33,931 bases of DNA from a virus (Duplodnaviria > Heunggongvirae > Uroviricota > Caudoviricetes). The notes under the pieces were generated by a model that saw only the letters and a program-made list of their open reading frames with translations, did not search any database and was not told where the DNA came from. Each line of letters starts with the position of its first letter. The stretch's first letter is position 1. Below, piece by piece: positions 1 to 21,288 of this stretch. The stretch covers positions 1-33,931 of IMG/VR virus record IMGVR_UViG_3300031992_000025, one strand, 5' to 3'. A program made the translations under genes and the position numbers.

Positions 1-48
1 CCCGATGACACAGAGATTTATGATGAAAATGAAAATTTAGTTGAATAA
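1..48 (+). CDS. 3' end of an upstream gene (partial, ...PDDTEIYDENENLVE*)
   Basis: Open frame from the window edge to TAA at 46-48, immediately followed by a promoter. Confidence 0.5.
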   Translation, partial: PDDTEIYDENENLVE

Positions 49-104
49 ACTATTTACATTTTCTATTTTTCGTGTTATAATATATTTGAAGAGAGGTAAG
101 AAGT

Positions 105-509
105 ATGGGCTTTAATAAAATTAGAACAATTAGAGTTAGCGAACGTGTGTTCGATCTCGTATGTGAAGATCTCGACAATGAAGCAACAGAAAACTATGTT
201 AAAATTTCTGGATACTTAGAATGCTTTAACAATTGCAGAGAACAAGGTTATGTTCTTCACGTAGATTCCGTTGATTGGGATAATCCAAACAGAACTAAAA
301 CTGATTTAGTTATCTGGGCTTTCGAAGCAAGAAGTTCAGATGAGATTGTCGTCTCTTGGCAAACTGAATATCCTCACAATGGAATGTTTAGTGAAGAAAC
401 TTACAACAATCGTAGAAAATATTTCCATTACGATGAATTACAAAAAGCAGCAAAGTTCATTATCGATTTAGTTAAGGAACATTTTGCACACGAATTTAGA
501 GGTAATTAA
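105..509 (+). CDS. Hypothetical early protein, 134 aa
   Basis: Promoter at 53, GAGGT RBS, TAA stop. Confidence 0.85.
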   Translation: MGFNKIRTIRVSERVFDLVCEDLDNEATENYVKISGYLECFNNCREQGYVLHVDSVDWDNPNRTKTDLVIWAFEARSSDEIVVSWQTEYPHNGMFSEETYNNRRKYFHYDELQKAAKFIIDLVKEHFAHEFRGN

Positions 510-511
510 TT

Positions 512-850
512 ATGGAAGAAAAAGATTTATTTGAAGAAATGGTCGATGAATTAGACTTAAATGAAATAGATGATTTTGAAATTAAGCCAGCAACGTATCA
601 AGTGTGGATGCTTGGTTATACTGAAGCTGAAGCTATTACTGACTTTGAAGTTTTAGTTAATGAATCTAAAGATGCAGAGCGCATGGTTGAATATGCTAAG
701 AAATTTGTAGATGAAAAAAGATACGAAAGCTCTATGCCATTTCCACCAGAAGTTGCATACATCGAAGTGTTAGTAGAAACAGTTGTTGATCTTGGAAACT
801 ATGAGTCTAATGAAGGAACTTTGTTCACAGCAACTGTAAAAGTGAAATAA
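512..850 (+). CDS. Hypothetical acidic early protein, 112 aa
   Basis: Starts 2 nt after the previous stop; ORF track. Confidence 0.85.
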   Translation: MEEKDLFEEMVDELDLNEIDDFEIKPATYQVWMLGYTEAEAITDFEVLVNESKDAERMVEYAKKFVDEKRYESSMPFPPEVAYIEVLVETVVDLGNYESNEGTLFTATVKVK

Positions 851-902
851 TTGTTTACAACACGAATTTATTGTGTTATAATATAAAATGCGAGGTAAAA
901 TT

Positions 903-1214
903 ATGAGAAAGTATTTTAACAAAATCAGATCAAAGTATTTAGGTAGAAAATTCGGTAGATGGACTGTTACAAGAGTGACACCAGTTTACACAAAAGGCTC
1001 TACTCACATGCGTTATTATTTAAGTAGAAAAACACATGATGGCGCAACTAAGACTGTTGCAGTAAGTTGCACAACTATGACTGCATTAGGTCGTGGCGAA
1101 ACTGATATGCCAACTTTATTACGTGGTAAAATGTTTCAACGCAAACGTTTTCCAAGCAAAGAATTTAGAAACTCTGCTTGGTATACTTATAACACAAACG
1201 GTAGTTTAGAATAA
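903..1214 (+). CDS. Hypothetical basic protein, 103 aa (GRKFGRWTV N-terminus)
   Basis: Promoter at 854; GAGGT at 892-896 favours ATG 903 over 888. Confidence 0.75.
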   Translation: MRKYFNKIRSKYLGRKFGRWTVTRVTPVYTKGSTHMRYYLSRKTHDGATKTVAVSCTTMTALGRGETDMPTLLRGKMFQRKRFPSKEFRNSAWYTYNTNGSLE

Positions 1215-1242
1215 TTACCAACATCGAAAGGAGGAAGTTGCG

Positions 1243-2160
1243 ATGGCAAGTCAAACATTCAACAACTTCAAGAATTACGCAAATCAATTAGAGAAAGAAC
1301 TTGGTATTAAATATGATGCTAAGCCTTATAAAGATACTATCAGGGTTATGCTTGATGGTTTTTGCAAAGCAATGGACGAAGGCGATGAACATCTTAAGAA
1401 CTTATATATCAGTGGTTTAATCTTACGTCATTGGGATAAAGTAAAGAAACTTGCAGATAGTTGCCCTGGCATCGATCTTAAAGGTGAAGAGTTCGTCGAC
1501 TGGGTTTATGAAGCAATTATGCTTGCTTGCGAATATCGTAAATGGCAAAAAGACGGAAGTGTCAATGCCCAACAATGTATCAATCAATGTATTGAAACTG
1601 TTAGAGTTAGACACTATTATGAATATAACTTAGACAAACACAAAGCGAACTACAATACTGTATCTTTAGAAACACCGGTGTGCGAAGAAGGCGATAATGG
1701 TGTTCAAAAAACACTTGGTGATACTATTTATGATGAAGATGCAGCAGCAGAAGTTAGTATGTCAGACGGATTTTCAAATGCAAAGCAACTAATTCAATCT
1801 TTCATCAACAAGAATCGTTTAGTTGAGGCAATTATTCTAGACATCATTGCTTTTGGTGATACACAAAAAGTTACAAAACACATTAAGAAAGGTTTTGATG
1901 AAAATGGTGAGTCTTATAAGTATTCAACTTATACATCGGAATTTTGGAAATTCAAAGCAGTCCAAATTCTTGCTAACTTACCAGAAGATTACCAACAATA
2001 CTTTCTTGAAACTTATTTAGTTAAGACAGCAGCGTTAGAAGCAGCTCTAGACGTGTTAAAACGTGCTAATAATCAAAAGTTATACAAAGAATTGCAAAAT
2101 ACTTTAACTTATGCAAAAAGCGTCTTAAACATCGCGATTTGAAACGATAATAACAATTAA
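1243..2160 (+). CDS. Phage sigma70-like transcription factor; ends at 2142 (TGA) in code 11 or 2160 (TAA, adds WNDNNN) in code 4
   Basis: GGAGG RBS; helical region-2-like segment (LILRHWDKVKKLA...EEFVDWVYEAIMLACEY) and region-3.2-like VSLETPV...TLGDTI; motif recognition only. Confidence 0.55.
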
Positions 2161-2168
2161 AAACACAC

Positions 2169-2191
2169 AACCTCTCAAATTGGGAGGTTTT
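2169..2191 (+). terminator. Intrinsic terminator after the sigma-like gene
   Basis: AACCTCTC-AAATT-GGGAGGTT hairpin followed by T residues. Confidence 0.65.
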
Positions 2192-2224
2192 CACATTGTA
2201 TAATAAAGTGAGGTAAACGACACT

Positions 2225-2953
2225 ATGTGGTTAGATATAATGAGCCAGTATAATACATTACAAGTAAATATCAAATTGGCGAATTTGCTTGGTTTAGAAG
2301 TTGCTACTTATTGGGCAGCACTGATGGACGTGTATGCGAGAGTAGTAAATAAATATAAAGATGAGTTAGAAGCGAATTCAGGATATTTTGAACTCGACAG
2401 AGACTATATTACTAAGAGAACGACATTACAGTTAGACAAACAGTTAGAGATCGATGCAGGACTCGGTAAACTCGGCGTATTACAACATCGCAATGAAAAC
2501 GAACTGAATTGGATCACACTAGATGTAGAAAAGCTTTGTGCGATCTTAGTAGATGACAGTATCGATGCGATCAGAGATGTTCAACGCGTTTCTAAACTTA
2601 GACGAGAAGATACCGCTCGCGCCAAGAAAGCATCGGTCAGAATAAATTTAGTCGCTGCACTAAAAGAAACTGATCCAGATGTGCTTACAGCTTACAATAA
2701 CTGGATCGACGCACTATTGGAAGCTAAGAAGCCGATTACTAGACAAGCTTTGGATATATACCAGAATAACTTAAACAATTACACTGATAACAAACAGGCG
2801 AAGATTAAAATTCTTGAGATTGCAACAACAAATGCTTACACTGAATTTGCGTGGTCTATGAAAATTTACGAAAAAGATTATCGTGGCAATGGAACATTTA
2901 TTGGTGTAAAGCAAAATAGAACTAGTGGAATTGATCCGAATTCAGGTTTTTAG
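2225..2953 (+). CDS. Putative replication initiator / winged-HTH DNA-binding protein, 242 aa
   Basis: N-terminus (NIKLANLLGLEVATYW...GYFELDRDYITKRTTL...LGKLGVL) resembles the wHTH of phage replisome organisers; GAGGT RBS. Confidence 0.45.
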   Translation: MWLDIMSQYNTLQVNIKLANLLGLEVATYWAALMDVYARVVNKYKDELEANSGYFELDRDYITKRTTLQLDKQLEIDAGLGKLGVLQHRNENELNWITLDVEKLCAILVDDSIDAIRDVQRVSKLRREDTARAKKASVRINLVAALKETDPDVLTAYNNWIDALLEAKKPITRQALDIYQNNLNNYTDNKQAKIKILEIATTNAYTEFAWSMKIYEKDYRGNGTFIGVKQNRTSGIDPNSGF

Positions 2954-2965
2954 GAGAAATTTAGT

Positions 2966-3259
2966 ATGAATGAATTTATAGCAAGACGATCATTAGAAGA
3001 AGATGCACTTCTAGAATATATTTCGAAAGCAAGAGTGTTAGACGATCTGTATCATCGAACAGGTGAGTTAGAAGAAACTATTGAAGCGATGGATAAAAAC
3101 ATCGACGATGTTGAGGAAACTGGTTTAGATGAAATTGTAGAAGTGATGTGCAAAGCTCGCAACGCACTAAATTTAGAAAGACTTGACCTCGAAATTCAAA
3201 TTCACAAGTTAGAGCTTTGGTTGGCAGAATTCGAAAAAATAAGACAATTAACCCGATAA
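2966..3259 (+). CDS. Hypothetical coiled-coil protein, 97 aa
   Basis: AGGAG RBS; heptad-like Leu/Glu pattern. Confidence 0.8.
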   Translation: MNEFIARRSLEEDALLEYISKARVLDDLYHRTGELEETIEAMDKNIDDVEETGLDEIVEVMCKARNALNLERLDLEIQIHKLELWLAEFEKIRQLTR

Positions 3260-3275
3260 ATTCGGGTTTTTTATT
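3250..3275 (+). terminator. Intrinsic terminator
   Basis: AACCCGA-TAAAT-TCGGGTT followed by a T run. Confidence 0.8.
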
Positions 3276-3329
3276 ATTTTTTAGCCAAAAATAGTGATTT
3301 TTTCACTGTTTTTAGTAGTTTTTTCACTA

Positions 3330-3700
3330 AAATTTAGTGAGAATTTAGCTGCAGATCTGTAAATTTAGTGTGATGATCATGTAACTGATCTGCAATTTGT
3401 GACTGTAACTTGTAACACGATCTGTAGTCGATCTGTATTCTAGTGAAATTTGTGACGGCATCCAGATGCACTAAACAGATGAATCAGGTTGCTGATCAGG
3501 TCTAGTGAATGACTGGCCAGCGTTCTAGTGAAGCTTTACAGTAACTGATCAGATGAATCTGTGTCATCTAGTGTGATGTACAGTAACAGATGCAGTAATA
3601 AGTGCGATGTACAGTAACGATGCAGTACTGTGTAACTGGATTTTGTGCCACTAGACTGAAAACAGGTTGATTTCGTGCATGTGTATGTGCGTTTCTTTTT
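3330..3700. repeat. Non-coding motif island A (YTAGTG / GATC / CAGATGAATCTG family)
   Basis: YTAGTG at 3334, 3365, 3440, 3502, 3525, 3568; 7 GATC in 3354-3550; direct repeat GATGTACAGTAAC(A)GATGCAGTA at 3575-3597 and 3606-3627; lies between a terminator and a promoter. Confidence 0.8.
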
Positions 3701-3781
3701 AATAATAAATAAAATGAAAAAGTATTTACAATTGGTCTAGAAAGTGATATAATATATATATAGAGAGTGAGGAATAAACAA

Positions 3782-3985
3782 ATGCAAGTAGTTACAGTTG
3801 AACGATTATTAAAACTTTTACAAGAACAAGTTAACAAAGGTAATGGAAAGAAAAAGATTCTATTATCAAATGACGATGAAGGTAATGGTTATCACGAAAT
3901 GTATTACGAAATTACTGAAGACGTCGCAGGTAATGATATGTGGGGAGAAATTAGTAATCCCGACGAATATATTATCTTAGGTTAA
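3782..3985 (+). CDS. Hypothetical early protein, 67 aa
   Basis: Promoter at 3725; GAGGA RBS supports ATG 3782. Confidence 0.8.
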   Translation: MQVVTVERLLKLLQEQVNKGNGKKKILLSNDDEGNGYHEMYYEITEDVAGNDMWGEISNPDEYIILG

Positions 3986-4224
3986 TGGAGGAACTGATAA
4001 TGACAAGACAAGAACTCGATACACTTTGGGAACTCGCATGTAAACTTCGTAAGGAAAGACTTGAAGAGATTAAAAAAGAAAATGACTTCACAGAAGAAGA
4101 ACTTCAAGAATTAGTCGACGACCCTTACTGCGAAGACCTCTACGACATTGATGATGGTGATAACTTAATTCAAGGTTTAGACATTGTGATAAGTGTTGTA
4201 GAAGACATGAAACCAACTGAATAA
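3985..4224 (+). CDS. Hypothetical acidic protein, 79 aa
   Basis: TAATG stop/start overlap with the previous gene. Confidence 0.8.
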   Translation: MEELIMTRQELDTLWELACKLRKERLEEIKKENDFTEEELQELVDDPYCEDLYDIDDGDNLIQGLDIVISVVEDMKPTE

Positions 4225-4310
4225 AAAAGTTTAAAGTAGACGTAAAAAAACGTTTACTTTTTCTTTTAAACGTGATATAATATTTATAGAATAAAGAGAG
4301 GTAAAAAACA

Positions 4311-4763
4311 ATGCAAGGACCAAAAGAAAAATATAATGCTGAAAAAGTATTAGAAAGATTAGAAGCAATGATTGAAAGAGGTTGCTCAAGAGAGATTAGA
4401 CAAGTCTATGACGAATTATCAATCTTCGACTGGTGGCCAGAAAGATTAACTATCACTCACATGAAACAAATGAGATCATTCTTGAGAGAAGCAATCAAGT
4501 TAGGTTATACTGGTTATGTTTGCTTTAAAGTCGGTGCTTCTGGTTGTGCTAATGGAATGTGGGCACACAAAGAAGAAGGTAAGGTAGAAGGTAAAGATGT
4601 CTACTCACCAGATGGCGATGCTATTTACAGAAGTTTCACACCTGATTACACTTATTGGTCATTTAATAAGAATGGCAAGTGGCTTCCAGACGGTGATACT
4701 CGTGGAACATACGACTCACTCAAAACCGCAAAGATGCTTGAAGAAGCACTTGCAAATGCTTAA
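4311..4763 (+). CDS. Hypothetical early protein, 150 aa
   Basis: Own hairpin and promoter (4253), GAGGT RBS. Confidence 0.85.
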   Translation: MQGPKEKYNAEKVLERLEAMIERGCSREIRQVYDELSIFDWWPERLTITHMKQMRSFLREAIKLGYTGYVCFKVGASGCANGMWAHKEEGKVEGKDVYSPDGDAIYRSFTPDYTYWSFNKNGKWLPDGDTRGTYDSLKTAKMLEEALANA

Positions 4764-4840
4764 ATAAAAAACTAAAAAGAAGTAAAAAACTATTTACTTC
4801 TTTTTTATTTTGTGGTATAATATATGTAGAGGATGAGAGT

Positions 4841-4999
4841 ATGAGGTATAATGTTAAAATTAAACTAAACAAAAATACACTTTACGAAGTTGAAGTTGAA
4901 GCAAGAAATGAAGCTGAAGCAATGTGCTTCGCTTACGACCAAATGGAATTAAATACTTATGCGGAGGCAAAAAGAATTTATGAAAGCAAAAAATTATAA
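4841..4999 (+). CDS. Small hypothetical protein, 52 aa (MRYNVKIKLNKNTLYEVEVEARNEAEA...)
   Basis: Directly after promoter 4793 and GAGGA; below the ORF-track size cutoff. Confidence 0.7.
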   Translation: MRYNVKIKLNKNTLYEVEVEARNEAEAMCFAYDQMELNTYAEAKRIYESKKL

Positions 5000-5300
5000 T
5001 CAAGTATTAAGAGCTCGCGGTTATAAAGCGAGAGAACTTAGCAAGTATGAAGGAATTTGTATCTACGAAAAAGTTCATAAGTTTAACAAGATAGTTTGCT
5101 ATGTTAAAAAAGACTCACATGGCAAAGGTCAAGAAATGACTTTCAATATCTATAGCACTTTGAAAACACCACAAGATATGGTTGAGTTTAAAGAGCAAGA
5201 ATTTGATAGAAGTTATCTTGCTAAAGAAGCAAATGCAATTCACGATGCTTTTGAAAAACTAAAAGACTTAAAAGCACCTAAACACTTATATTGTTTCTAA
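4980..5300 (+). CDS. Hypothetical protein, 106 aa
   Basis: GGAGG at 4963-4967 supports ATG 4980. Confidence 0.8.
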   Translation: MKAKNYNQVLRARGYKARELSKYEGICIYEKVHKFNKIVCYVKKDSHGKGQEMTFNIYSTLKTPQDMVEFKEQEFDRSYLAKEANAIHDAFEKLKDLKAPKHLYCF

Positions 5301-5367
5301 AAATTAAAAAAGGCTATTTACAAAGTAGCCTTTTTATGTTATAATATAATTGTAGGGAGAAAGAAAT

Positions 5368-5658
5368 ATGAAATACAAGATTTACCAAATTACAAACTAC
5401 AATGACTGCGATTATAAATTTGAATGGTGGGACTGGGCCAAAGAGAAATTTAACTTTGAGAGAGATTACTCATTAGTTTATGAAGGCGAGATTGAACTTG
5501 AAACCGATCCGATTTCAACACTTGAAAAACTATTTGAGATATTCAACATCAATCATCCAGCAGATTTTAGAGGTCACAGTTTGTCAGTCAGTGATGTTGT
5601 TGAGTTAGATGGTATTAAGTATTATTGTGACTCACAAGGTTGGGTAAAATTAAACTAA
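5368..5658 (+). CDS. YodL-like domain protein, 96 aa
   Basis: YKIYQI...LEKLFEIFNINHPADFRGHSLSVSDVVEL...YYCDS matches the YodL-family signature; own promoter at 5317. Confidence 0.75.
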   Translation: MKYKIYQITNYNDCDYKFEWWDWAKEKFNFERDYSLVYEGEIELETDPISTLEKLFEIFNINHPADFRGHSLSVSDVVELDGIKYYCDSQGWVKLN

Positions 5659-5729
5659 AAAATTTAATTAAAAAATTTATATAAAAATTAAAGGAGGTTC
5701 GTTGTATAATATAATAGGAGGCTATAGTT

Positions 5730-5945
5730 ATGAGATTAGAAGAAGGCAAATTAATTCTATCTGAGGCTGAACTTGCTGAAGTTAAAAAAGCAAACGTAAT
5801 GGCAAGCCCAAGCATTGCTGGTCTTTATCTACGTAGTTTTCTTAGAAATAAAAATTTAGTTGAAGACTTAGAAACACAACCTGATGTTAAATTTTATACA
5901 GAATGCGTGCAAGCATATAGAAGAAAGAATTTTGAAGTAAAATAA
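5730..5945 (+). CDS. Hypothetical protein, 71 aa
   Basis: TTGTATAAT at 5702-5710 and AGGAGG RBS. Confidence 0.8.
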   Translation: MRLEEGKLILSEAELAEVKKANVMASPSIAGLYLRSFLRNKNLVEDLETQPDVKFYTECVQAYRRKNFEVK

Positions 5946-6004
5946 AAAAAGTATTTACATCGTTTCACTAATATGTTATAATATATGTGTAAGCGAGGTA
6001 GTTT

Positions 6005-6301
6005 ATGCGAAACACAATTAAAAAAGAAACTGATATTTTCAAAAAAGATTTATCAAAAGTAGAAGGCTCTTACACAAAGTGTATTAGCGATAACATTAAC
6101 TTGATTTATGATCTTGGCGTCGATACTAAAGTCGATTTAGTTACATTTGTAAACAAGATTATAGATATAATTAAAGATGCAAAAGACACAGATGCAAAAC
6201 GAAACTTTTTAGTTAAGTTAAAAATGCAAAGAAGTAAAATGCACGCATTAGAATTTGTAAACAATGCATATCTTCGTGGCTGTGGTCTTGAAGCAATCTA
6301 G
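6005..6301 (+). CDS. Hypothetical protein, 98 aa
   Basis: Promoter at 5954, GAGGT RBS. Confidence 0.8.
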   Translation: MRNTIKKETDIFKKDLSKVEGSYTKCISDNINLIYDLGVDTKVDLVTFVNKIIDIIKDAKDTDAKRNFLVKLKMQRSKMHALEFVNNAYLRGCGLEAI

Positions 6302-6316
6302 AAAGGACGAACCACT

Positions 6317-6688
6317 ATGAACGACAGACGACTTGTCAAAAACACAGAAAACCCAGCAATGTTAGTTTTCTATCTTAACAAGCACAGAAAAGAAATTAAG
6401 CGTATTGCTGATGCCCCAAAAGGAACTTACACATTAACTGAATTTTATCGTGTAGTTAAACCAGCATTTATTGAAGCACCAAGCAAACCTTACACCAATG
6501 CAACTATTAATAAATATAGTGCAACAGTAAGACGTGGTAAAGCAAGTGCTGAATCACAAGCAAGATCAATTATGTATGTGCTTGAAAGAAATGATGAACT
6601 TTATGGTTATGGTGGAGGCAATAGAAAACCTCTTGAACCAAAAGATATTATTTCTGACGAAGAATTAGCAATGCTTGAAACAAAGTAA
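6317..6688 (+). CDS. Hypothetical basic protein, 123 aa
   Basis: AAGGA RBS; followed by a terminator. Confidence 0.8.
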   Translation: MNDRRLVKNTENPAMLVFYLNKHRKEIKRIADAPKGTYTLTEFYRVVKPAFIEAPSKPYTNATINKYSATVRRGKASAESQARSIMYVLERNDELYGYGGGNRKPLEPKDIISDEELAMLETK

Positions 6689-6704
6689 TACATTAAACAA
6701 ACAA

Positions 6705-6742
6705 AAATAAAGTTAGCGTATAAAACGTTAACTTTTTATTTT
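6705..6742 (+). terminator. Intrinsic terminator before island B
   Basis: AAAGTTAGCGT-ATAAA-ACGTTAACTTT hairpin (G-T wobble) followed by a T run. Confidence 0.7.
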
Positions 6743-6749
6743 ATATTAG

Positions 6750-7080
6750 CAGATGATGAATTTAGTGCATGATGAATTTAGTGTGAAAGCTACAGACTGT
6801 GATCGCAGCTTTATCCGACGATCAGTTAGCTGTTACGATTCTAGTGTGAAAGCTGCAGATCAGAAGCTGATCTTTTACAGCTGCATCGATCTATATTCTA
6901 GTGTGAATCACCACAGATCGTGGATACAGATTCATCTGCAATGTACGATCATGTCTAGTGAATCAGACTACGATGTTGATGAAAACAGTACGATTTCGAG
7001 CATTTGTTAGTGAACAAAAACATGATCTGCAAAGTTTTGTTCGCGATTTCATGTAGTAAACTGTTACAAAAATTTGCAAC
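6750..7080. repeat. Non-coding motif island B
   Basis: ATGATGAATTTAGTG tandem at 6753 and 6769; YTAGTG at 6762, 6778, 6841, 6898, 6955, 7007; TTCTAGTGTGAA twice; 8 GATC in 6801-7027; CGATCTATATTCTAGTG (6887) matches 3429-3445 at 16 of 17 positions. Confidence 0.8.
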
Positions 7081-7121
7081 AAAACGTTTACATCGAAACA
7101 CTAATGTGATATAATATAAGT

Positions 7122-7418
7122 ATGGAAGTAAAGATAACTAAACTTAACAACTTACAAATATGGCCAACTGGTTTTATTACAGTATCAGCGGTTCATTTTA
7201 AATTAGATGATGAAGATTATTTCTTGCATTACTCTGGCGAAGAATACGAAGACCATTTGACTTTATATAAAGGCAGAAACAAATGTCATCTTACTCGTAT
7301 TAGTTCTTGCTATGGAACATTAGATGACTTTATTAAATTCACAAAAAAGCCAAGATGTTTAAAGTATGTTGATACAGAAAACTTTATTGAGAAGTTAAAA
7401 GAAAAACATTTACTTTAA
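7122..7418 (+). CDS. Hypothetical protein, 98 aa
   Basis: Follows promoter 7087; nearly leaderless. Confidence 0.75.
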   Translation: MEVKITKLNNLQIWPTGFITVSAVHFKLDDEDYFLHYSGEEYEDHLTLYKGRNKCHLTRISSCYGTLDDFIKFTKKPRCLKYVDTENFIEKLKEKHLL

Positions 7419-7460
7419 TTTAAAAGTGTGTTATAATATTAATAGTGAGGTAAGAAAGAA

Positions 7461-7835
7461 ATGATTGATAAACAAACATTAGAAAACTTTAGGCAAGACT
7501 TCAATGAAGCAATGAAAGATTTAGAAACAAAGTATGGTTTTGTAATCGAACTTGGACGTATCACTTATACAGCAACAAGTTTCACCGGCAAACTCGAAGT
7601 CAATGAAGGTGATAGCAAAGACGACGTTAATGAAAAAGACTTCTATAAGTATTGCTCTATGTATGGCTTAAGTAAAGACGACTATGATAGACGTTTCACT
7701 TTCCAAGGCAATGATTATATTGTAGTTGGCATTAGACCAAGCAAACGCAAATACCCGATTTGTTGCCAGCAAGTTCAAAACGGCACCACTTATGGTTTCA
7801 CCGCTGAGTGTGTTAAACGTTGCTTAGGCAAATAA
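7461..7835 (+). CDS. Hypothetical phage protein, 124 aa
   Basis: Promoter at 7409, GAGGT RBS. Confidence 0.85.
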   Translation: MIDKQTLENFRQDFNEAMKDLETKYGFVIELGRITYTATSFTGKLEVNEGDSKDDVNEKDFYKYCSMYGLSKDDYDRRFTFQGNDYIVVGIRPSKRKYPICCQQVQNGTTYGFTAECVKRCLGK

Positions 7836-7894
7836 GAGAAGAATAAAACTTCTCTTTTTTATTTACAAAGTTCGAGAAACATGTTATAATATAT

Positions 7895-8323
7895 ATGAAG
7901 ATAAGCGAGGAATATAAAATGAAATTTAAAGAATGGTTATTAGCAAATTGGAACGAACTTAGAAAAGATACAAAACATTTCTCTGATGACGAACACAAAG
8001 TGTTAGACTTAGAAAACAACTCTTGGTGGATCAACTATTCACATGAAAAGCCGTTAGATAGTTGGGACAGATTATTTGCTTTATACTTAATTGACGTTCA
8101 CCCAGAATGTATTAATAAAACATGGGACGAAGTAAAAGACATTGAAGATATTAAAGACTTTGAAATTGGTGGTTATGAAGGTAATAGAGCTTATGACAAC
8201 TATGAACGTGAATGGCTTAGTGTTGATAATGCTTGGAGCGCAATGACTAATGTTGCTAAGCAAGGTAGAGAAGTAGTCTTAGTTGACTCTTACGAAGACG
8301 ACGGTTGGTTTGGTGCCAGCTAG
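7895..8323 (+). CDS. Hypothetical Trp-rich acidic protein, 142 aa (9 Trp, all TGG)
   Basis: Follows promoter 7862. Confidence 0.8.
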   Translation: MKISEEYKMKFKEWLLANWNELRKDTKHFSDDEHKVLDLENNSWWINYSHEKPLDSWDRLFALYLIDVHPECINKTWDEVKDIEDIKDFEIGGYEGNRAYDNYEREWLSVDNAWSAMTNVAKQGREVVLVDSYEDDGWFGAS

Positions 8324-8410
8324 AAATAAAAAGAAAAGTAAGTAGAAAAACTATTTACTTTTTTTCTTTTGTGTGTTATAATATATATGTAGAGAAGAGG
8401 TATACTAATT

Positions 8411-8794
8411 ATGGAAAGATTTGAATTTCATACTGCGTTTCAATTAACAAGAAAGATTATATTCGAAGTTAGTTATTACACTTTAGGCAGCAATGACTCT
8501 GCTTATTTCACAACTAGTGCTTGTGAGTTTAATCAACCTAAGACAGACTTTAATAGAGGTGGTCAAGCACAGAAAGACTTATGCTTTGGACCTGCTAAAG
8601 CATTCTATGAGAAGTGGGACAAGTATCATTTACATAGATTAGATGACGAACACTTTGAAGAAATGATTAAAGACTTAGAAGTATTAAAACAAAACTATAA
8701 TTACATTGAACACAAAGCCGATTGCCGTCCAGAAGATATTAGATTTTGGCAAGAGAAAGAATTGTCAATGCAAAAAGTAAAGAAAGTAAAATAA
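8411..8794 (+). CDS. Hypothetical protein, 127 aa
   Basis: Promoter at 8354, GAGG RBS. Confidence 0.85.
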   Translation: MERFEFHTAFQLTRKIIFEVSYYTLGSNDSAYFTTSACEFNQPKTDFNRGGQAQKDLCFGPAKAFYEKWDKYHLHRLDDEHFEEMIKDLEVLKQNYNYIEHKADCRPEDIRFWQEKELSMQKVKKVK

Positions 8795-8851
8795 CTTATT
8801 TACTTTTCTTTTTATCTGTGATATAATAATAATGTAAGGAGAAACTTATTT

Positions 8852-9052
8852 ATGAAGTGTTGTATTTGTGGAGTTGAAATTAATGGTTACGGAAATAACC
8901 CTGATGGTGCCGTATGGAAAACACCTACTGGAGAAATCGAACTACCAGAGTTTGAAGCAGACGACAGATGCTGCGACGAATGTAATTCTAAGTTTGTCAT
9001 ACCTGGCCGCATATATAGAATGAATTTGGTTAAGAGAGGAGAAACTAAATAA
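8852..9052 (+). CDS. Small Cys-rich (Zn-binding) protein, 66 aa
   Basis: MKCCICG...RCCDECN motifs; promoter at 8799; AGGAG RBS. Confidence 0.8.
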   Translation: MKCCICGVEINGYGNNPDGAVWKTPTGEIELPEFEADDRCCDECNSKFVIPGRIYRMNLVKRGETK

Positions 9053-9195
9053 TGTTTACCATATTCATAATCGTCGCTGCATGGAACTTAAACCTACCAC
9101 AGTGGCTACAAATATGCTTAACAGTATTTGGTGTCTTACATCTCTTGTTTGGAACTACCACACGAGTCGTGCATGAATATAAGGAGAGGAAATAA
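9052..9195 (+). CDS. Small membrane peptide, 47 aa (MFTIFIIVAAWNLNLPQWLQICLTVFGVLHLLFG...)
   Basis: TAATG overlap, AGGAG RBS, hydrophobic sequence. Confidence 0.65.
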   Translation: MFTIFIIVAAWNLNLPQWLQICLTVFGVLHLLFGTTTRVVHEYKERK

Positions 9196-9240
9196 AACCT
9201 CTTCTTTTTTTATTTACACAGTACGTAGAACATGATATAA

Positions 9241-9660
9241 CGTAGACATGAAAAGCTTCACTAGAAAAATTCAGAACAGTCTTCATCTAGCTACAGCTTC
9301 ACTGAACATCGGAACAGACTCTTCTAAATATCGGATTTAGCTTTACTAGAAATTGACATATCTGAATCAGATCGCTGTATCCGGATTTTCGTCCACTAGA
9401 AATACAGACGAAGATGTTGTAGCATACAGTAACACAAATGTTACATACGGTAACTTTTTACTAGAGCACAGTAACATACAGATGACGATGCTGCTATATA
9501 CAGATGTGCCGCACTAGAATACAGATGAATCTGCGATCTGATACAGATGAATACAGCTTAATATACACTAGCATCGGATACAGTATCTGGTAGCTTTTAC
9601 ACTAGCATCGGCAGCTATATCTGAGCTTTCGGCAGCTTATAATATACTAGAAATAGGCCT
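9241..9660. repeat. Non-coding motif island C (motif inverted relative to A and B)
   Basis: YACTAG at 9259, 9344, 9394, 9459, 9512, 9566, 9600, 9645; ATACAG 8 times; CACTAGAATACAGAT (9512-9526) is the exact reverse complement of 3431-3445; ACACTAGCATCGG at 9565 and 9599. Confidence 0.8.
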
Positions 9661-9684: not shown

Positions 9685-9765
9685 CCCCTTTTGGCTAGGG
9701 GGGCCCTTTCAAACCTAAAGGGAGCATTTGTAGGGGAGCCAAAAAATTTTCCGCGCGCACACGTA
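9685..9765. other. GC-rich junction element (candidate genome terminus, packaging site or terminal-repeat boundary)
   Basis: CCCCT..AGGGG and CCCTTT..AAAGGG inverted repeats, a G6 run, AAAAAATTTT, CCGCGCGCACACG; sits at the compositional boundary. The function is inferred. Confidence 0.35.
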
Positions 9766-9906
9766 ATAATAAAAAGAAAGAGTAGCAAAACGTGTAGCAA
9801 ATAAAAATTTCACACGAAGGCCACAATATAAGAAGCAAAGAGTTGCAGTTCGTGTAGCAATTAACAAGATTTTACTGTATAATATAGTATAGAGGTAAAA
9901 TAAAGT

Positions 9907-11018: not shown

Positions 11019-11228
11019 ATGGCAAAAAAATCATTAAGCTCAAAAGTAGAGCATTGTCCAGCATGTGGTATTCTTAAAAGTAAAAATAAACAATGTAAAC
11101 ACTGTGGTTATGGTGCGGCCTCTCAAACTGCTGAACAATCACCTTGTGAAATTAGCCTAAAGCTTACTGGCTATGATATGAATACATATGATTGTGTTAT
11201 TATTAATGGAGTCAAGTTTTACAAATAA
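11019..11228 (+). CDS. Small Zn-ribbon protein, 69 aa
   Basis: CPACG...CKHCG; AGGAG RBS. Confidence 0.75.
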   Translation: MAKKSLSSKVEHCPACGILKSKNKQCKHCGYGAASQTAEQSPCEISLKLTGYDMNTYDCVIINGVKFYK

Positions 11229-17946: not shown

Positions 17947-20127
17947 ATGACAGTAATTAAGCGTGATGGTAAAAAGGTAGACTTTGATGTCTATAAAATT
18001 AAAAAAGCACTGATTGGTGCTAATTCAAGATCTCAAGAGATGTCTGATGGTGACATTGAAAGAATTACAGAGATTGTTTTAAACAAATGTAATAAAGTAA
18101 CTGGAGATTTAAAAGTTGAAGAAATTCAAGATATTGTTGAAGATACTTTATTAAAAAGTAAGTTTAATCATACTGCAAAAGCATATATTCTTTATAGAGA
18201 CAAACGTACAAGAATCAGACAAGGCAAATCAAAACTTCTCAAAGAGGTTGGTGATAAGCTTATGGGTGTTCACATTGTTAATCAAAATGCTAATGTCGAC
18301 GAACGCTCATTTGGTGGTCGTAAAGGTGAAGCAGATAGCGTTTTAACTAAACAATATGCTTTAGACTACTGCATGTCCGAAAAGTCTAGAAATAATCATT
18401 TAAACAATGAAATTTATATTCATGACTTAGATGCTTATGCTGTTGGTATGCACAACTGCTTAAGTATTCCATTTGATGATTTACTAGCTAAAGGTTTTAA
18501 TACAAGACAAACTGATGTTAGACCAGCAAATTCAATTAATACTGCATTCCAACTTATTGCTGTAATATTCCAATTACAAAGCTTACAACAATTTGGAGGA
18601 GTTTCAGCAACTCACTTAGACTGGACAATGGTTCCATATGTTAGAAAGTCATTCTATAAACACTTTAATGATGGTGTTAAGTGACTCTATGAAGATGAAG
18701 ACTGTATAGAGCTTAAGCCAGATATGCCAATTGATGATGCTCAATATAAGTGGTCTGGTTGGGGCGATAAAATTTATAAATATGCTTTAGAAATGACAAC
18801 TAAAGAGCTAAAGCAAGCCGTAGAAGGTATGTATCATAACTTGAATACTCTTCAAAGTCGCTCTGGAAACCAATTACCATTTACAAGTATTAACTATGGC
18901 ACTTGCACTTTATTAGAAGGTAGAATGGTTATTAAAGCTTTATTAGAAGGCAGTCTAAAAGGTGTTGGTAAGTTACATCGTACACCAATCTTCCCGTGTG
19001 GCATCTTCCAATATATGAAAGGCGTTAACGATAAACCGGGAACACCAAACTATGATTTATATCAATTAGCACTAAAGTCAACAGCTAAACGTTTATACCC
19101 AAACTATGCTAATGTTGACTGGAGCAATAATGCTGGGTATGATAGAAATGATCCTAAAACCTATTTCTCAACTATGGGCTGCAGAACTGCCAATGGTGCA
19201 GACATCAATGCAGAGCCTGGTGTAAATCCACAAACAAAAGATGGTCGTGGAAATATCTGTCCAGTTACAATTATCATGCCAACATTGGCTATGGAAGCTG
19301 GTAGAGACGTTGAGAAATTCATGGCTTTACTTAATACAAAAATCCATGAAGCTAAAGATATGCTAATTGAAAGATATGAATATATCTGTAGTCAATGTGC
19401 TGATTCTGCTAAGTTTATGTATGAGAATGGAACTATGATGGGATATAAGCCAGAAGAAGGTATTAGAAGTGCTATGAAGCACGGAACTCTCGTTATTGGG
19501 CAAATTGCTTTAGCCGAGACTTTAGAGCTTTTAATTGGCAAAAATCAATGTACTCCAGAAGGCATGGAATTGGCAAAACGAATTGAGCAACTATTCAAAG
19601 ATAGATGCGCTGAATTCAAACAAAGATACCACTTGAATTTCGGCGTTTATTACACACCTGCTGAAAATTTATGCTATACAGCAATGAAGAAATTCAAAGA
19701 AAAATACGGTATAATAAAAAATGTATCAGATCGTGAATATTTTACAAATAGTATTCACGTGCCAGTTTGGGAAAAAGTATCAGCTTTTGAAAAGATTGAT
19801 ATTGAATCTCAATTAACTGGATATTCAAATGCTGGTTGTATTACTTATGTCGAATTAAGTTCAGCTGCAACTGGAAACTTAGAAGCACTTGAGTCATTAG
19901 TTAATTATGCAATGGACCATGACATTCCATATTTTGCAGTTAATATTCCAAATGATACATGCTTAGAATGTGGTTATACAGGCGAGTTCAATGATCATTG
20001 TCCAGAATGTGGAAGCCATAATATTCAACAATTAAGAAGGGTGACAGGGTACCTTACTGGAAATTATAAAACAGCATTTAACTACGGAAAACAAAAAGAA
20101 GTAGAAGATAGGGTGAAACATATTTAA
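17947..20127 (+). CDS. nrdD: Anaerobic (class III) ribonucleoside-triphosphate reductase with ATP cone, 726 aa in code 4
   Basis: ATP cone MTVIKRDG; HNC; TMGCR thiyl-radical loop; CLECG..CPECG Zn site; RVTGYL glycyl-radical motif; the two track ORFs are in frame across a single TGA (18682). Confidence 0.95.
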
Positions 20128-20789
20128 TGAAAAATTTAACATTTACTTGGAAAACACAATTTATCTTTAAATCATTATTAGCTGGAGTTTTAATTGCTTT
20201 AGCTGGCGGAACATATTTATCATGTGGTTCACTTATTTCAAATCCAGATTTAGCTAAGATAGTTGGTTCATTCTTATTCTCAATTGGACTCATTGCTGTA
20301 TTAATGCTTGAAGCAAACTTATTTACTGGCAAGGTTGGTTATATTGATAGCTGACATAAGTTTGGATTAGCATGTGCTTGCTTAATTTATAATTTGCTAG
20401 TTGCTTTCTTAATTGGTATGTTGTATAAAGGCATTAATTTACCTGGAGCAATAAGTGGTGGTCCATTTATTAGTCGATTAGATAAGCATTGGTATAAAAT
20501 GCTTGCTGATGGCTTCGGTTGTGGCGCATTAATTTATCTAGCAGTTGAGCTTTATAGAAGAACTAAAAATGTTATTCCAGTAATTATTTGTGTTATGGCA
20601 TTTATTCTTAGTGGAACTGAGCACTGTATTGCGGATGCTTTCTATTTAGGTGCATCACAATTATCTTGGAAAGCATTTGGTTATCTTTGGTTAGCAGTTG
20701 TAGGAAATTCACTTGGAGCAGCTGGTGTTCACTGGCTGCAAGTCGGAGCTGAGAGACTTAATGAGATACCTGACAATATACAAAGATAG
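20127..20789 (+). CDS. Formate/nitrite transporter (FNT, FocA family), 220 aa in code 4
   Basis: NLFTGKVG, FILSGTEHCIAD (conserved His), VVGNSLG, multiple TM segments; fragments in frame across TGA 20352; TAATG overlap with nrdD. Confidence 0.85.
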
Positions 20790-21288
20790 TATTTCTGATG
20801 GCCCAGGCGTAAGAGTTTCTGCTTATTTTGCAGGATGCTTGCCTAATAAGTGTGGAAATAAGAATTGCCCAGGTTGTCATAATCCAGAAGCTCAGAAGTT
20901 TACTGCCGGTGAAGAATACACAGAAGAAACAAAGAATTATATTTTAGGTCTTTGCAGAAATCCATATATTGCTGGTCTGACAATTTGTGGCGGCGAACCT
21001 TATGACCAAGATGAAAATCAATTAATTGAGCTTTTAAAGGCTTTTTATGAGCAAAACCCAAATAAAAATGTTTGAATTTATACAGGTTATGAATTTGAAC
21101 AGATTAGAAATAGGGAACTAACAAAATATATTGATGTTGCTGTAGTTGGACCATTTATCTTAGAGCAAAGAGATATTTCTGATGCTAATAGATGGCGAGG
21201 AAGTAGAAATCAAAGAGTTATAAATGGACCAAAATCTTTAAAAAGCGGTCAGATTATTTTCTTGGAAGATATACCAAATAATGAATAA
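20761..21288 (+). CDS. nrdG: Anaerobic RNR activating radical-SAM enzyme, 175 aa in code 4
   Basis: SDGPGVRVSAYFAGC...CPGCHN, GLTICGGEP, V-[TGA 21073]-IYTGY, RWRGSRNQRVI; GGAG RBS for ATG 20761. Confidence 0.92.

Follow-up and report, generated by a model that had tools for sequence, protein, structure and literature searches.

Arrays of short DNA words around the early module of a large sheep-gut phage, and a reading of them as candidate sites for a DNA-binding protein

This article concerns three non-coding islands, A, B and C, near the start of a 33931 nt stretch of viral DNA, together with the gene and the promoter cassettes around them. The stretch, which we call the window, is bases 1-33931 of the 146,538 bp IMG/VR virus record IMGVR_UViG_3300031992_000025 (G000). 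The source is a large, uncultured phage of the sheep gut. Judging by their shared sequence, G000 and a sister contig, G001 (IMGVR_UViG_3300028833_000101, 104,702 bp), are two contigs of one phage of ~244 kb. G001 shares 170 identical bases with the end of G000, and its last 6.8 kb (97929-104702) is an 82-95% identical version of G000 1-7172. The initial 7 kb of the window are present in at least two versions within the sample. Because the first 127 nt of G000 are identical to G001 97929-98055 and diverge thereafter, window position 1 is a branch in the assembly graph and no physical genome end. Nearly all open reading frames (ORFs) are on the + strand, and GC skew is positive along the whole 244 kb. 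The islands and their parts lie as follows, in window positions.

3250-3268, + strand: hairpin resembling an intrinsic terminator, ending the operon upstream of island A
3270-3700: island A, with 7 TAGTG, 3 CACTA, 7 GATC, 3 ACAGTAAC and 5+5 CAGAT/ATCTG
3334, 3365, 3440, 3502, 3525 and 3568, + strand: the six YTAGTG of island A
3431-3445, + strand: composite unit ATCTGTATTCTAGTG, the reverse complement of CACTAGAATACAGAT
3674-3691, + strand: alternating purine-pyrimidine hairpin with a T-run, at the right end of island A
6709-6735, + strand: terminator-like hairpin upstream of island B
6750-7080: island B, with 6 TAGTG on the + strand, 8 GATC, and the palindromes CAGAT-TC-ATCTG and CCAC-AGATC-GTGG
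6762, 6778, 6841, 6898, 6955 and 7007, + strand: the six YTAGTG of island B
6889-6903, + strand: composite unit with one mismatch, ATCTATATTCTAGTG, exact in the G001 variant
9212-9240, + strand: promoter-like TTTACA-N17-TATAAC with TG upstream, kept in the relative L254 and reading into island C
9241-9660: island C, with 8 (C/T)ACTAG, ~9 TACAG, 4 CAGATG and 2 ACAGTAAC on the + strand
9260-9646: the eight ACTAG-type reverse copies of island C
9512-9526, − strand: copy of the composite unit, an exact reverse complement of 15 nt
9685-9765: G+C-rich element directly past island C, ending in an alternating CGCGCGCACACGTA tract

The island words are 5-8 nt long and belong to three families: CACTA/TAGTG; CAGAT(C/G)/ATCTG, with an excess of GATC; and ACAGTA(AC)/TACAG. 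A composite unit of 15-16 nt, CACTAGAA(A)TACAGAT, is present in two copies in C and in inverted form in A and B. Its 15-mer form ATCTGTATTCTAGTG starts at 3431; the same 15 nt stand at 9512 in exact reverse complement and at 6889 with one mismatch, and G000 has no further copy. CAGATGAATCTG is found at 3550 and 9522, with its reverse complement at 6927, and all five + strand copies of ACAGTAAC in the 146.5 kb record lie within A and C. Half-sites stand singly, in direct arrays or as inverted pairs with a gap of 0-5 nt (A carries the pair CACTA-N5-TAGTG at 3325-3339). The spacing of words within islands is irregular, at 16-85 nt, and the longest inverted matches between islands run to 15-19 nt. 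A reading made from the bare sequence of the window had reported these motifs, with six YTAGTG in A, six in B and eight in reverse in C, and we recovered all of them, CAGATGAATCTG, ACAGTAAC and the 15-mer included, where it had placed them. It had also described the last island as inverted. That is right for the TAGTG word and the composite unit, which are flipped in C, and wrong for CAGATG and ACAGTAAC, which are on the + strand in both A and C.

The words are far commoner here than chance would have it, and their enrichment is strand-specific. The islands, 1.1 kb in all, hold 10 copies of TCTAGTG, and the remaining 243 kb hold another 10, an enrichment of ~200-fold (binomial p 2.7e-20). In first-order Markov simulations run for each island, YTAGTG|CACTAR reached z = 10, 12 and 5 in A, B and C, and GATC reached 5.2, 4.2 and 0.1. 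No windows in the 244 kb rank above the islands for YTAGTG|CACTAR. Genome-wide, both CTAG and GATC are under-represented about twofold; in the islands they stand about fourfold above expectation, and they do so alone: other 4-mer palindromes are without excess. The density of GATC in A and B is 8-10 times the genome level, often as TGATCA or CGATCT; C has only 2, where its variant C' in L254 has 9. The islands are non-coding: between variants there are insertions or deletions of 9, 10, 11 and 55 nt, as well as deletions of unit size. They are not CRISPR arrays either: a repeat search found no near-identical repeats of 24-48 nt with unique spacers of similar length.

There is one other place in the 244 kb where island words reach high density, and it is a gene. 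It encodes an SNF2 helicase (G001 89336-91051; L017:9336-11051) and lies directly upstream of the first early cassette. We shuffled its synonymous codons 1000 times with protein sequence and codon usage held fixed. The gene has 13 YTAGTG|CACTAR against 3.1 +/- 1.5 expected (P<0.001) and 24 GATC against 14.6 +/- 2.5 (P<0.001), and no other of the 216 ORFs tested stands out in this way. When all 512 strand-merged 5-mers are ranked across the gene without a preset choice of word, CACTA/TAGTG comes first, and TACAG/CTGTA and CGATC/GATCG are in the top ten. The sites occupy all three reading frames. Five of the 13 fall on residues identical in the homologue of G002, a 221 kb relative, and at a sixth a single conservative residue differs; the G002 gene uses other synonymous codons at all six and has no word enrichment. 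Enrichment also shows in three more SNF2 homologues from this border, which have 84, 82 and 69% amino acid identity (P 0.003-0.005). Since most of their sites occupy different codons, it is turnover that maintains the density of words.

In the relative L248 the border gene is a different one, NrdG, 52% identical to the NrdG of our phage. By the same permutation it has 6 words against 1.2 expected (P<0.001), 8 GATC against 2.8 and 6 CAGAT/ATCTG against 2.2. The NrdG of our phage lies elsewhere, at 20713-21288, and has 0 island words. The embedding of words thus follows map position and not the gene, a pattern that is hard to explain except by selection on words of double-stranded DNA.

Some other features of this border deserve mention. 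A non-coding stretch upstream of a Zn-ribbon ORF and the SNF2 gene (G001 88300-89000 and 91100-91170; L017:8300-9000 and 11100-11170) contains a palindrome with 32 nt arms (88454-88525) and several alternating purine-pyrimidine tracts. An AT-rich tract of 8 nt period near the SNF2 gene in G001 is mirrored on the gene's other side (64 nt, 84-89% complementary). We also looked for a vocabulary of G002's own; its SNF2 gene may carry a cluster of ACCTAG near the 3' end, but the signal is too faint to be relied on.

These results bear on whether the islands might be genes for non-coding RNAs, those of A and B being partly complementary to that of C and acting by pairing. Complementary stretches of 15-19 nt do link A and B to C, a hairpin with a T-run ends A, and C and the G001 version of B are each immediately preceded by promoter-like sequence (at 9212-9240, and conserved, in the case of C). 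Yet a promoter is lacking for A and for the G000 version of B, the words are turned round or palindromic in relatives, and they are selected within protein-coding DNA in all three frames. Rfam gives no match in the islands even at E<=1: its covariance models (Rfam 15) matched nothing in B or C at that threshold, and matches at chance level only were returned at 3216-3319, which covers the terminator and the left edge of A. The island RNAs fold only weakly better than shuffled sequence (z -1.8, -2.4 and -1.5), as expected from many short palindromes. RNA genes are, to our minds, very improbable. The suggestion of the sequence-only reading that the islands act as DNA gains accordingly, from the synonymous-codon embedding in the border gene, the lack of an Rfam family and the weak folds. 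RNA contigs from two sheep-gut metatranscriptome runs cover the early genes and barely B and C; we did not use them as evidence, because contigs show only absence of cover. These RNA data, like the depth data discussed below, come from assembled contigs of public runs.

We fetched contigs of relatives from IMG/VR and JGI metagenomes, using as anchor the homologues of a 299-amino-acid (299-aa) early ORF at window 1243-2142. Percentages below are identities to the phage of the window.

L254: 137 kb contig of the G001 type, 299-aa ORF 81%; islands A', B' and C', with 9 GATC in C'
L252, L259 and L264: 299-aa ORF 73-82%; an island at the place of A
L268: 299-aa ORF 57%; two islands, with the word as inverted pairs CACTA-N0-5-TAGTG
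L248: 299-aa ORF 59%; a small island of four CAGATCG words and the palindrome CACTAAATTTAGTG
G002: 221 kb, portal 65%, anchor ORF 37%; no islands

In L259 the word is GCACTAAAA, four times and in the opposite orientation (that is, CACTAAAA in reverse sense), accompanied by many ACAGTAC/TACTGT words. L248 has G+C-rich palindromes at the place of A, and the corresponding gap in G002 is 239 nt long and contains just a promoter and hairpins. Island position and vocabulary are thus kept among close relatives, and the number, order, spacing and orientation of words are free. Conservation in related phages, which the sequence-only reading had called for, therefore holds in L254, L252, L259, L264 and L268 and fails in G002. 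That reading had probably put too much weight on the inversion of C, given that the equivalent island is reversed in L259 and palindromic in L268. More distant searches brought little. No TCTAGTG clusters occur in 17 relatives picked by portal protein (54-80% identity). The exact 15-mer has 54 loci in IMG/VR, all single chance matches except for the sister contig G001. Among the matches listed for a triple TCTAGTG pattern in IMG/VR, most were collagen-like coding repeats, with spacings in multiples of 9, and none was a relative.

Co-existing strains show how such turnover can look at close range. The G000 and G001 versions of A differ by the indels of 9, 10, 11 and 55 nt already given, and those of B by an alignment gap of ~46 nt. 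Two deletions run exactly from word to word, 6776->6842 in B and 9407->9512 in C. The sheep-gut DNA run holds many more variants, unit deletions and cassette swaps at promoter-terminator junctions, and the region is a mosaic of strains. One could take all this to mean that the islands have no function and are recombination debris or decayed repeats left by cassette shuffling. The mosaic of strain variants, cassette swaps and gene replacements in one sample is what such a process would leave, the islands do evolve fast, and they are absent from G002. Debris does not explain why, in five lineages, turnover keeps up the density in whichever of two essential-looking genes occupies the border position, nor why the vocabulary is retained where the neighbouring 299-aa protein has fallen to 57-59% identity. 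We give it scarcely any credence.

One gene travels with the islands. A strongly acidic, helical-looking 97-aa ORF (2966-3259) is always directly upstream of a TAGTG island: in G000, G001, L252, L259 and L264, and, elsewhere on the map, in L268. L248 and G002, which lack that island, lack the ORF too. In L259 (L259:6094-6190) and L252 (L252:4490-4600) a late-type promoter, TTTGCTAAATTT, stands right after this ORF and is followed by a hairpin and terminator, which suggests a small late transcript just before island A in these two.

The islands take on more meaning against the transcription map. Between 53 and 8799 of the window there are 12 promoters of sigma-A type, TTTAC(A/T)-N17-TATAAT, mostly with TG, each heading a cassette of short ORFs and terminators. 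The run of these host-type cassettes begins at ~91.19 kb in G001, just past the SNF2-family helicase gene, and spans roughly 16 kb. Island C follows the last of the 12, directly after the final early cassette. Past it there are only -35-less TGTATAAT promoters and TTTGCTAAATTA promoters, the latter presumably of a middle or late class. From 12.9 kb on there are 41 copies of the phage-specific motif TTTGCTAAATTA(T/A)AT (window 12928, 17807 and 21317, and 38 more sites in G000/G001), and practically all of them are intergenic and on the + strand. A position weight matrix built from these 41 copies found no match among the island words and matched only at the AT-rich left edges of A and B. From this map A and B lie inside the early module and C at its end.

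At finer scale, as the sequence-only reading had noticed, A and B each lie between a terminator and the next promoter: A between the hairpin at 3250-3268 and the sigma-A-type promoter at 3725, B between the hairpin at 6709-6735 and the one at 7087. Downstream of every word cluster on the + strand comes a hairpin of alternating purines and pyrimidines plus a T-run (3674-3691, for example). The same kind of hairpin comes after the SNF2 gene, after island C (as CGCGCGCACACGTA) and after the islands of relatives. Past the hairpin the order is an AT-rich tract of TTAATAA type and then a promoter. Such tracts follow island A and the left-border cluster, where the tract is a ~90 nt run with an 8 nt period, and they would also suit promoter UP elements. 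The G+C-rich element at 9685-9765 keeps its position in L254, where C' too is followed by an element of the same kind, and has largely diverged in sequence except for its closing CGCGCGCACACGTAATAATAAAAAG; whether it is part of the island system is uncertain.

This serial layout invites the thought that one or more replication origins lie here, the words being iterons bound by an initiator, the AT-rich tracts unwinding, the strong promoter helping and the several clusters cooperating. Cooperating clusters or origins have precedents in ori and crr of phage P4 and in the several origins of T4. The short-repeat arrays here coincide with clusters of GATC, and cluster, hairpin, AT-rich tract and promoter do stand in series. 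One-strand genes and positive GC skew throughout the 244 kb make it probable that forks travel in the direction of the genes, setting out, for instance, where the early module begins. Against this, an iteron-type origin would have at least three phased direct repeats of 17-22 bp; the words here are of 5-8 nt, or 15-16 nt as the composite, spaced 16-85 nt apart in mixed orientation. Their arrangement and orientation vary among close relatives, and the left cluster is spread across 1.7 kb of coding DNA, far wider than known origins. There are no exact DnaA boxes (TTWTNCACA) in the islands, and the density of one-mismatch boxes equals the genome background. No initiator gene adjoins any island, the neighbouring ORFs having no Pfam match to replication proteins. 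We regard an origin as unlikely.

Three known systems of short sites help to place the arrays. In phage P4, ori and crr carry clusters of the octamer TGTTCACC bound by the alpha protein, and they are compact and beside the initiator gene. The words here are similarly short (those of P4 are 8 bp) and clustered several kilobases apart in both orientations, and P4 serves them all with one protein. Unlike P4, our phage has four clusters, one of them spread over a 1.7 kb gene, and its binder is only predicted. In plasmid pSM19035 the Omega repressor binds parS1-3, three arrays with 7-10 copies of a 7 bp word in direct and inverted orientation, upstream of promoters. Multi-copy short words upstream of promoters are common to both, and in pSM19035 the orientation is functionally flexible. 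The heptads there are contiguous and of different sequence, however, whereas the words here are 16-85 nt apart, and we found no ribbon-helix-helix gene here. GATC-rich cis sites, finally, include pac of phage P1 (TGATCA/G hexamers, in clusters on either side of a cleavage site near the terminase genes), P1 oriR and Escherichia coli oriC. GATC is clustered in A and B as it is in those sites; unlike P1 pac, island C of this phage has only 2, and the terminase gene is ~80-100 kb from the islands. Among methylases we recognised none of Dam type, the sole match being of EcoRI type.

Of the systems known to us, phage T5 offers the closest layout. Its left terminal repeat contains three regions, R1-R3 (with the presumed injection stop signal), that are untranslated, rich in repeats and palindromes and set among pre-early, host-takeover genes; R2 and R3 carry a common element in opposite orientation ~3 kb apart, R3 is at the end of the first-step-transfer region, the intervening ORFs are hypervariable and the function of R1-R3 is unproven (Davison, bioRxiv 10.1101/866236). 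Here, likewise, untranslated repeat-rich gaps lie within the first-expressed block of genes with the last at its end, and two regions with a shared element in opposite orientation stand a few kilobases apart with variable ORFs between them. One can therefore picture an early module that is, or lies within, a long terminal repeat, with arrays that stop or anchor the entering DNA or guide the cuts. Besides the match of layout to R1-R3, there are word clusters at both borders of the early module and a strictly unidirectional genome with its early genes first. The likeness ends at the details. T5 has an inverted element of 131 bp with eight paired DnaA boxes, and a strongly conserved order (bioRxiv 10.1101/866236), whereas no long inverted element is shared here, only pieces of 15-19 nt, and the islands are without DnaA boxes. 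Island arrangement turns over quickly, word orientation differs between relatives, and the islands are no better conserved than neighbouring ORFs. A cluster embedded in a gene, present here, is not described for T5 in bioRxiv 10.1101/866236. The terminal repeat and two-step entry of T5 are established, and our phage is known from assembled contigs alone; position 1 of the window is the assembly-graph branch described above and not a physical end, and the 137 kb contig of L254 passes through the entire region unbroken. Depth in the contigs of the DNA run is ~80, summed over 1-7 kb, against ~47 at 9.8-10.9 kb, an apparent twofold step that is no evidence for a terminal repeat because it sums strain variants and cross-mapping promoter cassettes. 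As a whole, we consider this T5-like arrangement improbable.

The reading we favour, with our confidence evenly balanced for and against, is that the islands work as DNA, each an array of short sites to which one or more sequence-specific proteins would bind. Among the roles on offer the loading of such a protein is the most likely, because the same words crowd the coding sequence of the gene before the early region; the sequence-only reading had listed protein-loading sites among its candidates, and of these it fits best. The core half-site would be CACTA/TAGTG, often beside TACAGAT to form CACTAGAA(A)TACAGAT, and mixed with the GATC-containing CAGATC/GATCTG. Single, direct and inverted half-sites would suit a protein binding either as a dimer or as monomers that cooperate, and selection would then act to keep the local density of words and not their order, spacing or orientation. 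The arrays lie at four places around the early module: one in the coding DNA of the border gene, two in gaps A and B, and one in C, after the last early cassette. A protein loaded on them would treat the early module as a unit, with its borders and two inner points marked. Of this picture, the excess of words, the constraint on the DNA (within genes too), the positions of the arrays and the turnover of sites from lineage to lineage are observed; binding by a protein, and its effect, are inferred.

What such loading would lead to we can put forward only tentatively. It may close or insulate the early transcription domain at a set time, a possibility in whose favour every cluster stands just upstream of a promoter and at boundaries between promoter classes, and which we still think doubtful. 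By analogy with T5, it might instead hold or define a segment that enters first or is terminally repeated, a proposal we think equally doubtful. That the arrays initiate replication seems unlikely, as it did above. The most specific version, a private code of short words with one reader protein, holding or defining first-entering or terminally repeated DNA and written into the border gene, is decidedly unlikely.

Several observations weigh against protein-loading arrays as such. G002, with a portal ~65% identical, has neither islands nor embedded words, so the system must be dispensable or replaced there. The islands are no better conserved than their flanks: A lies within an 82% block, C and C' are 74% identical with 86 gaps, and the 97.5% of B belongs to a 1 kb block that includes two genes. 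In L268 the sigma-A-type promoters go on past the second island, and the right border is thus a border only in this lineage. C and the G001 version of B are directly downstream of promoter-like sequences, and some read-through transcription is conceivable. As for the binder, a Pfam search of 20 early ORFs gave one domain match (YodL-like), two sub-threshold ones and no DNA-binding domain, and the 97-aa ORF, the sole constant neighbour of the islands, is unlikely to be a DNA binder.

Binding-site arrays in phage early regions are known already. We know of no described counterpart, and found none, for this vocabulary, for the four-site layout or, above all, for the position-dependent embedding in coding DNA with turnover. 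The repeat-rich untranslated early regions of phages, with T5 as the textbook example, have gone unexplained for decades, since mutations in an essential cis site yield no phenotype that can be selected. What the present phage adds is a comparative handle: a small vocabulary whose density is kept by turnover, which can be detected inside genes by synonymous-codon permutation and which is tied to map position. That yields a quantitative test for cis-acting domain markers from sequence alone, usable on other uncultured large phages. The search for the binder is also narrowed, to early or virion proteins common to the island-bearing lineages and missing from G002-type relatives. Were the most specific version above to prove true, staged entry of the T5 style would have arisen independently in a phage of low-G+C gut bacteria, with signals coded by density rather than by position.

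The phage itself has no close cultured relative. Among cultured phages the neighbouring 299-aa ORF has no match and the portal only distant ones (23-33%) of T4 type, and megablast and blastn searches with the region or with island A against 50,697 phage records gave no match. Its NrdD is 73% identical to that of Thomasclavelia phages. NrdD (window 17947-20127) is a single frame of 726 aa only with TGA read as a sense codon, and many later ORFs lengthen in the same way: TGA=W is needed by many later genes and not by early ones, and it raises the number of ORFs of at least 250 aa in G000 to 54 from 46. The sole early ORF with a domain match, at 5368-5658, has the YodL-like domain of Pfam PF14191 (E 1e-21). 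Beyond island C, window 9765-9867 contains four repeats of the AGTTGCAA/GTAGCAA type in two 43 nt units, just upstream of the first -35-less promoter (TGTATAAT, at 9875); they are kept in L254 and look like activator sites. Past the window, in G000 45000-62400, a series of gaps 200-1400 nt long has no ORFs and an elevated G+C content (0.36-0.42); RNA genes may lie there.

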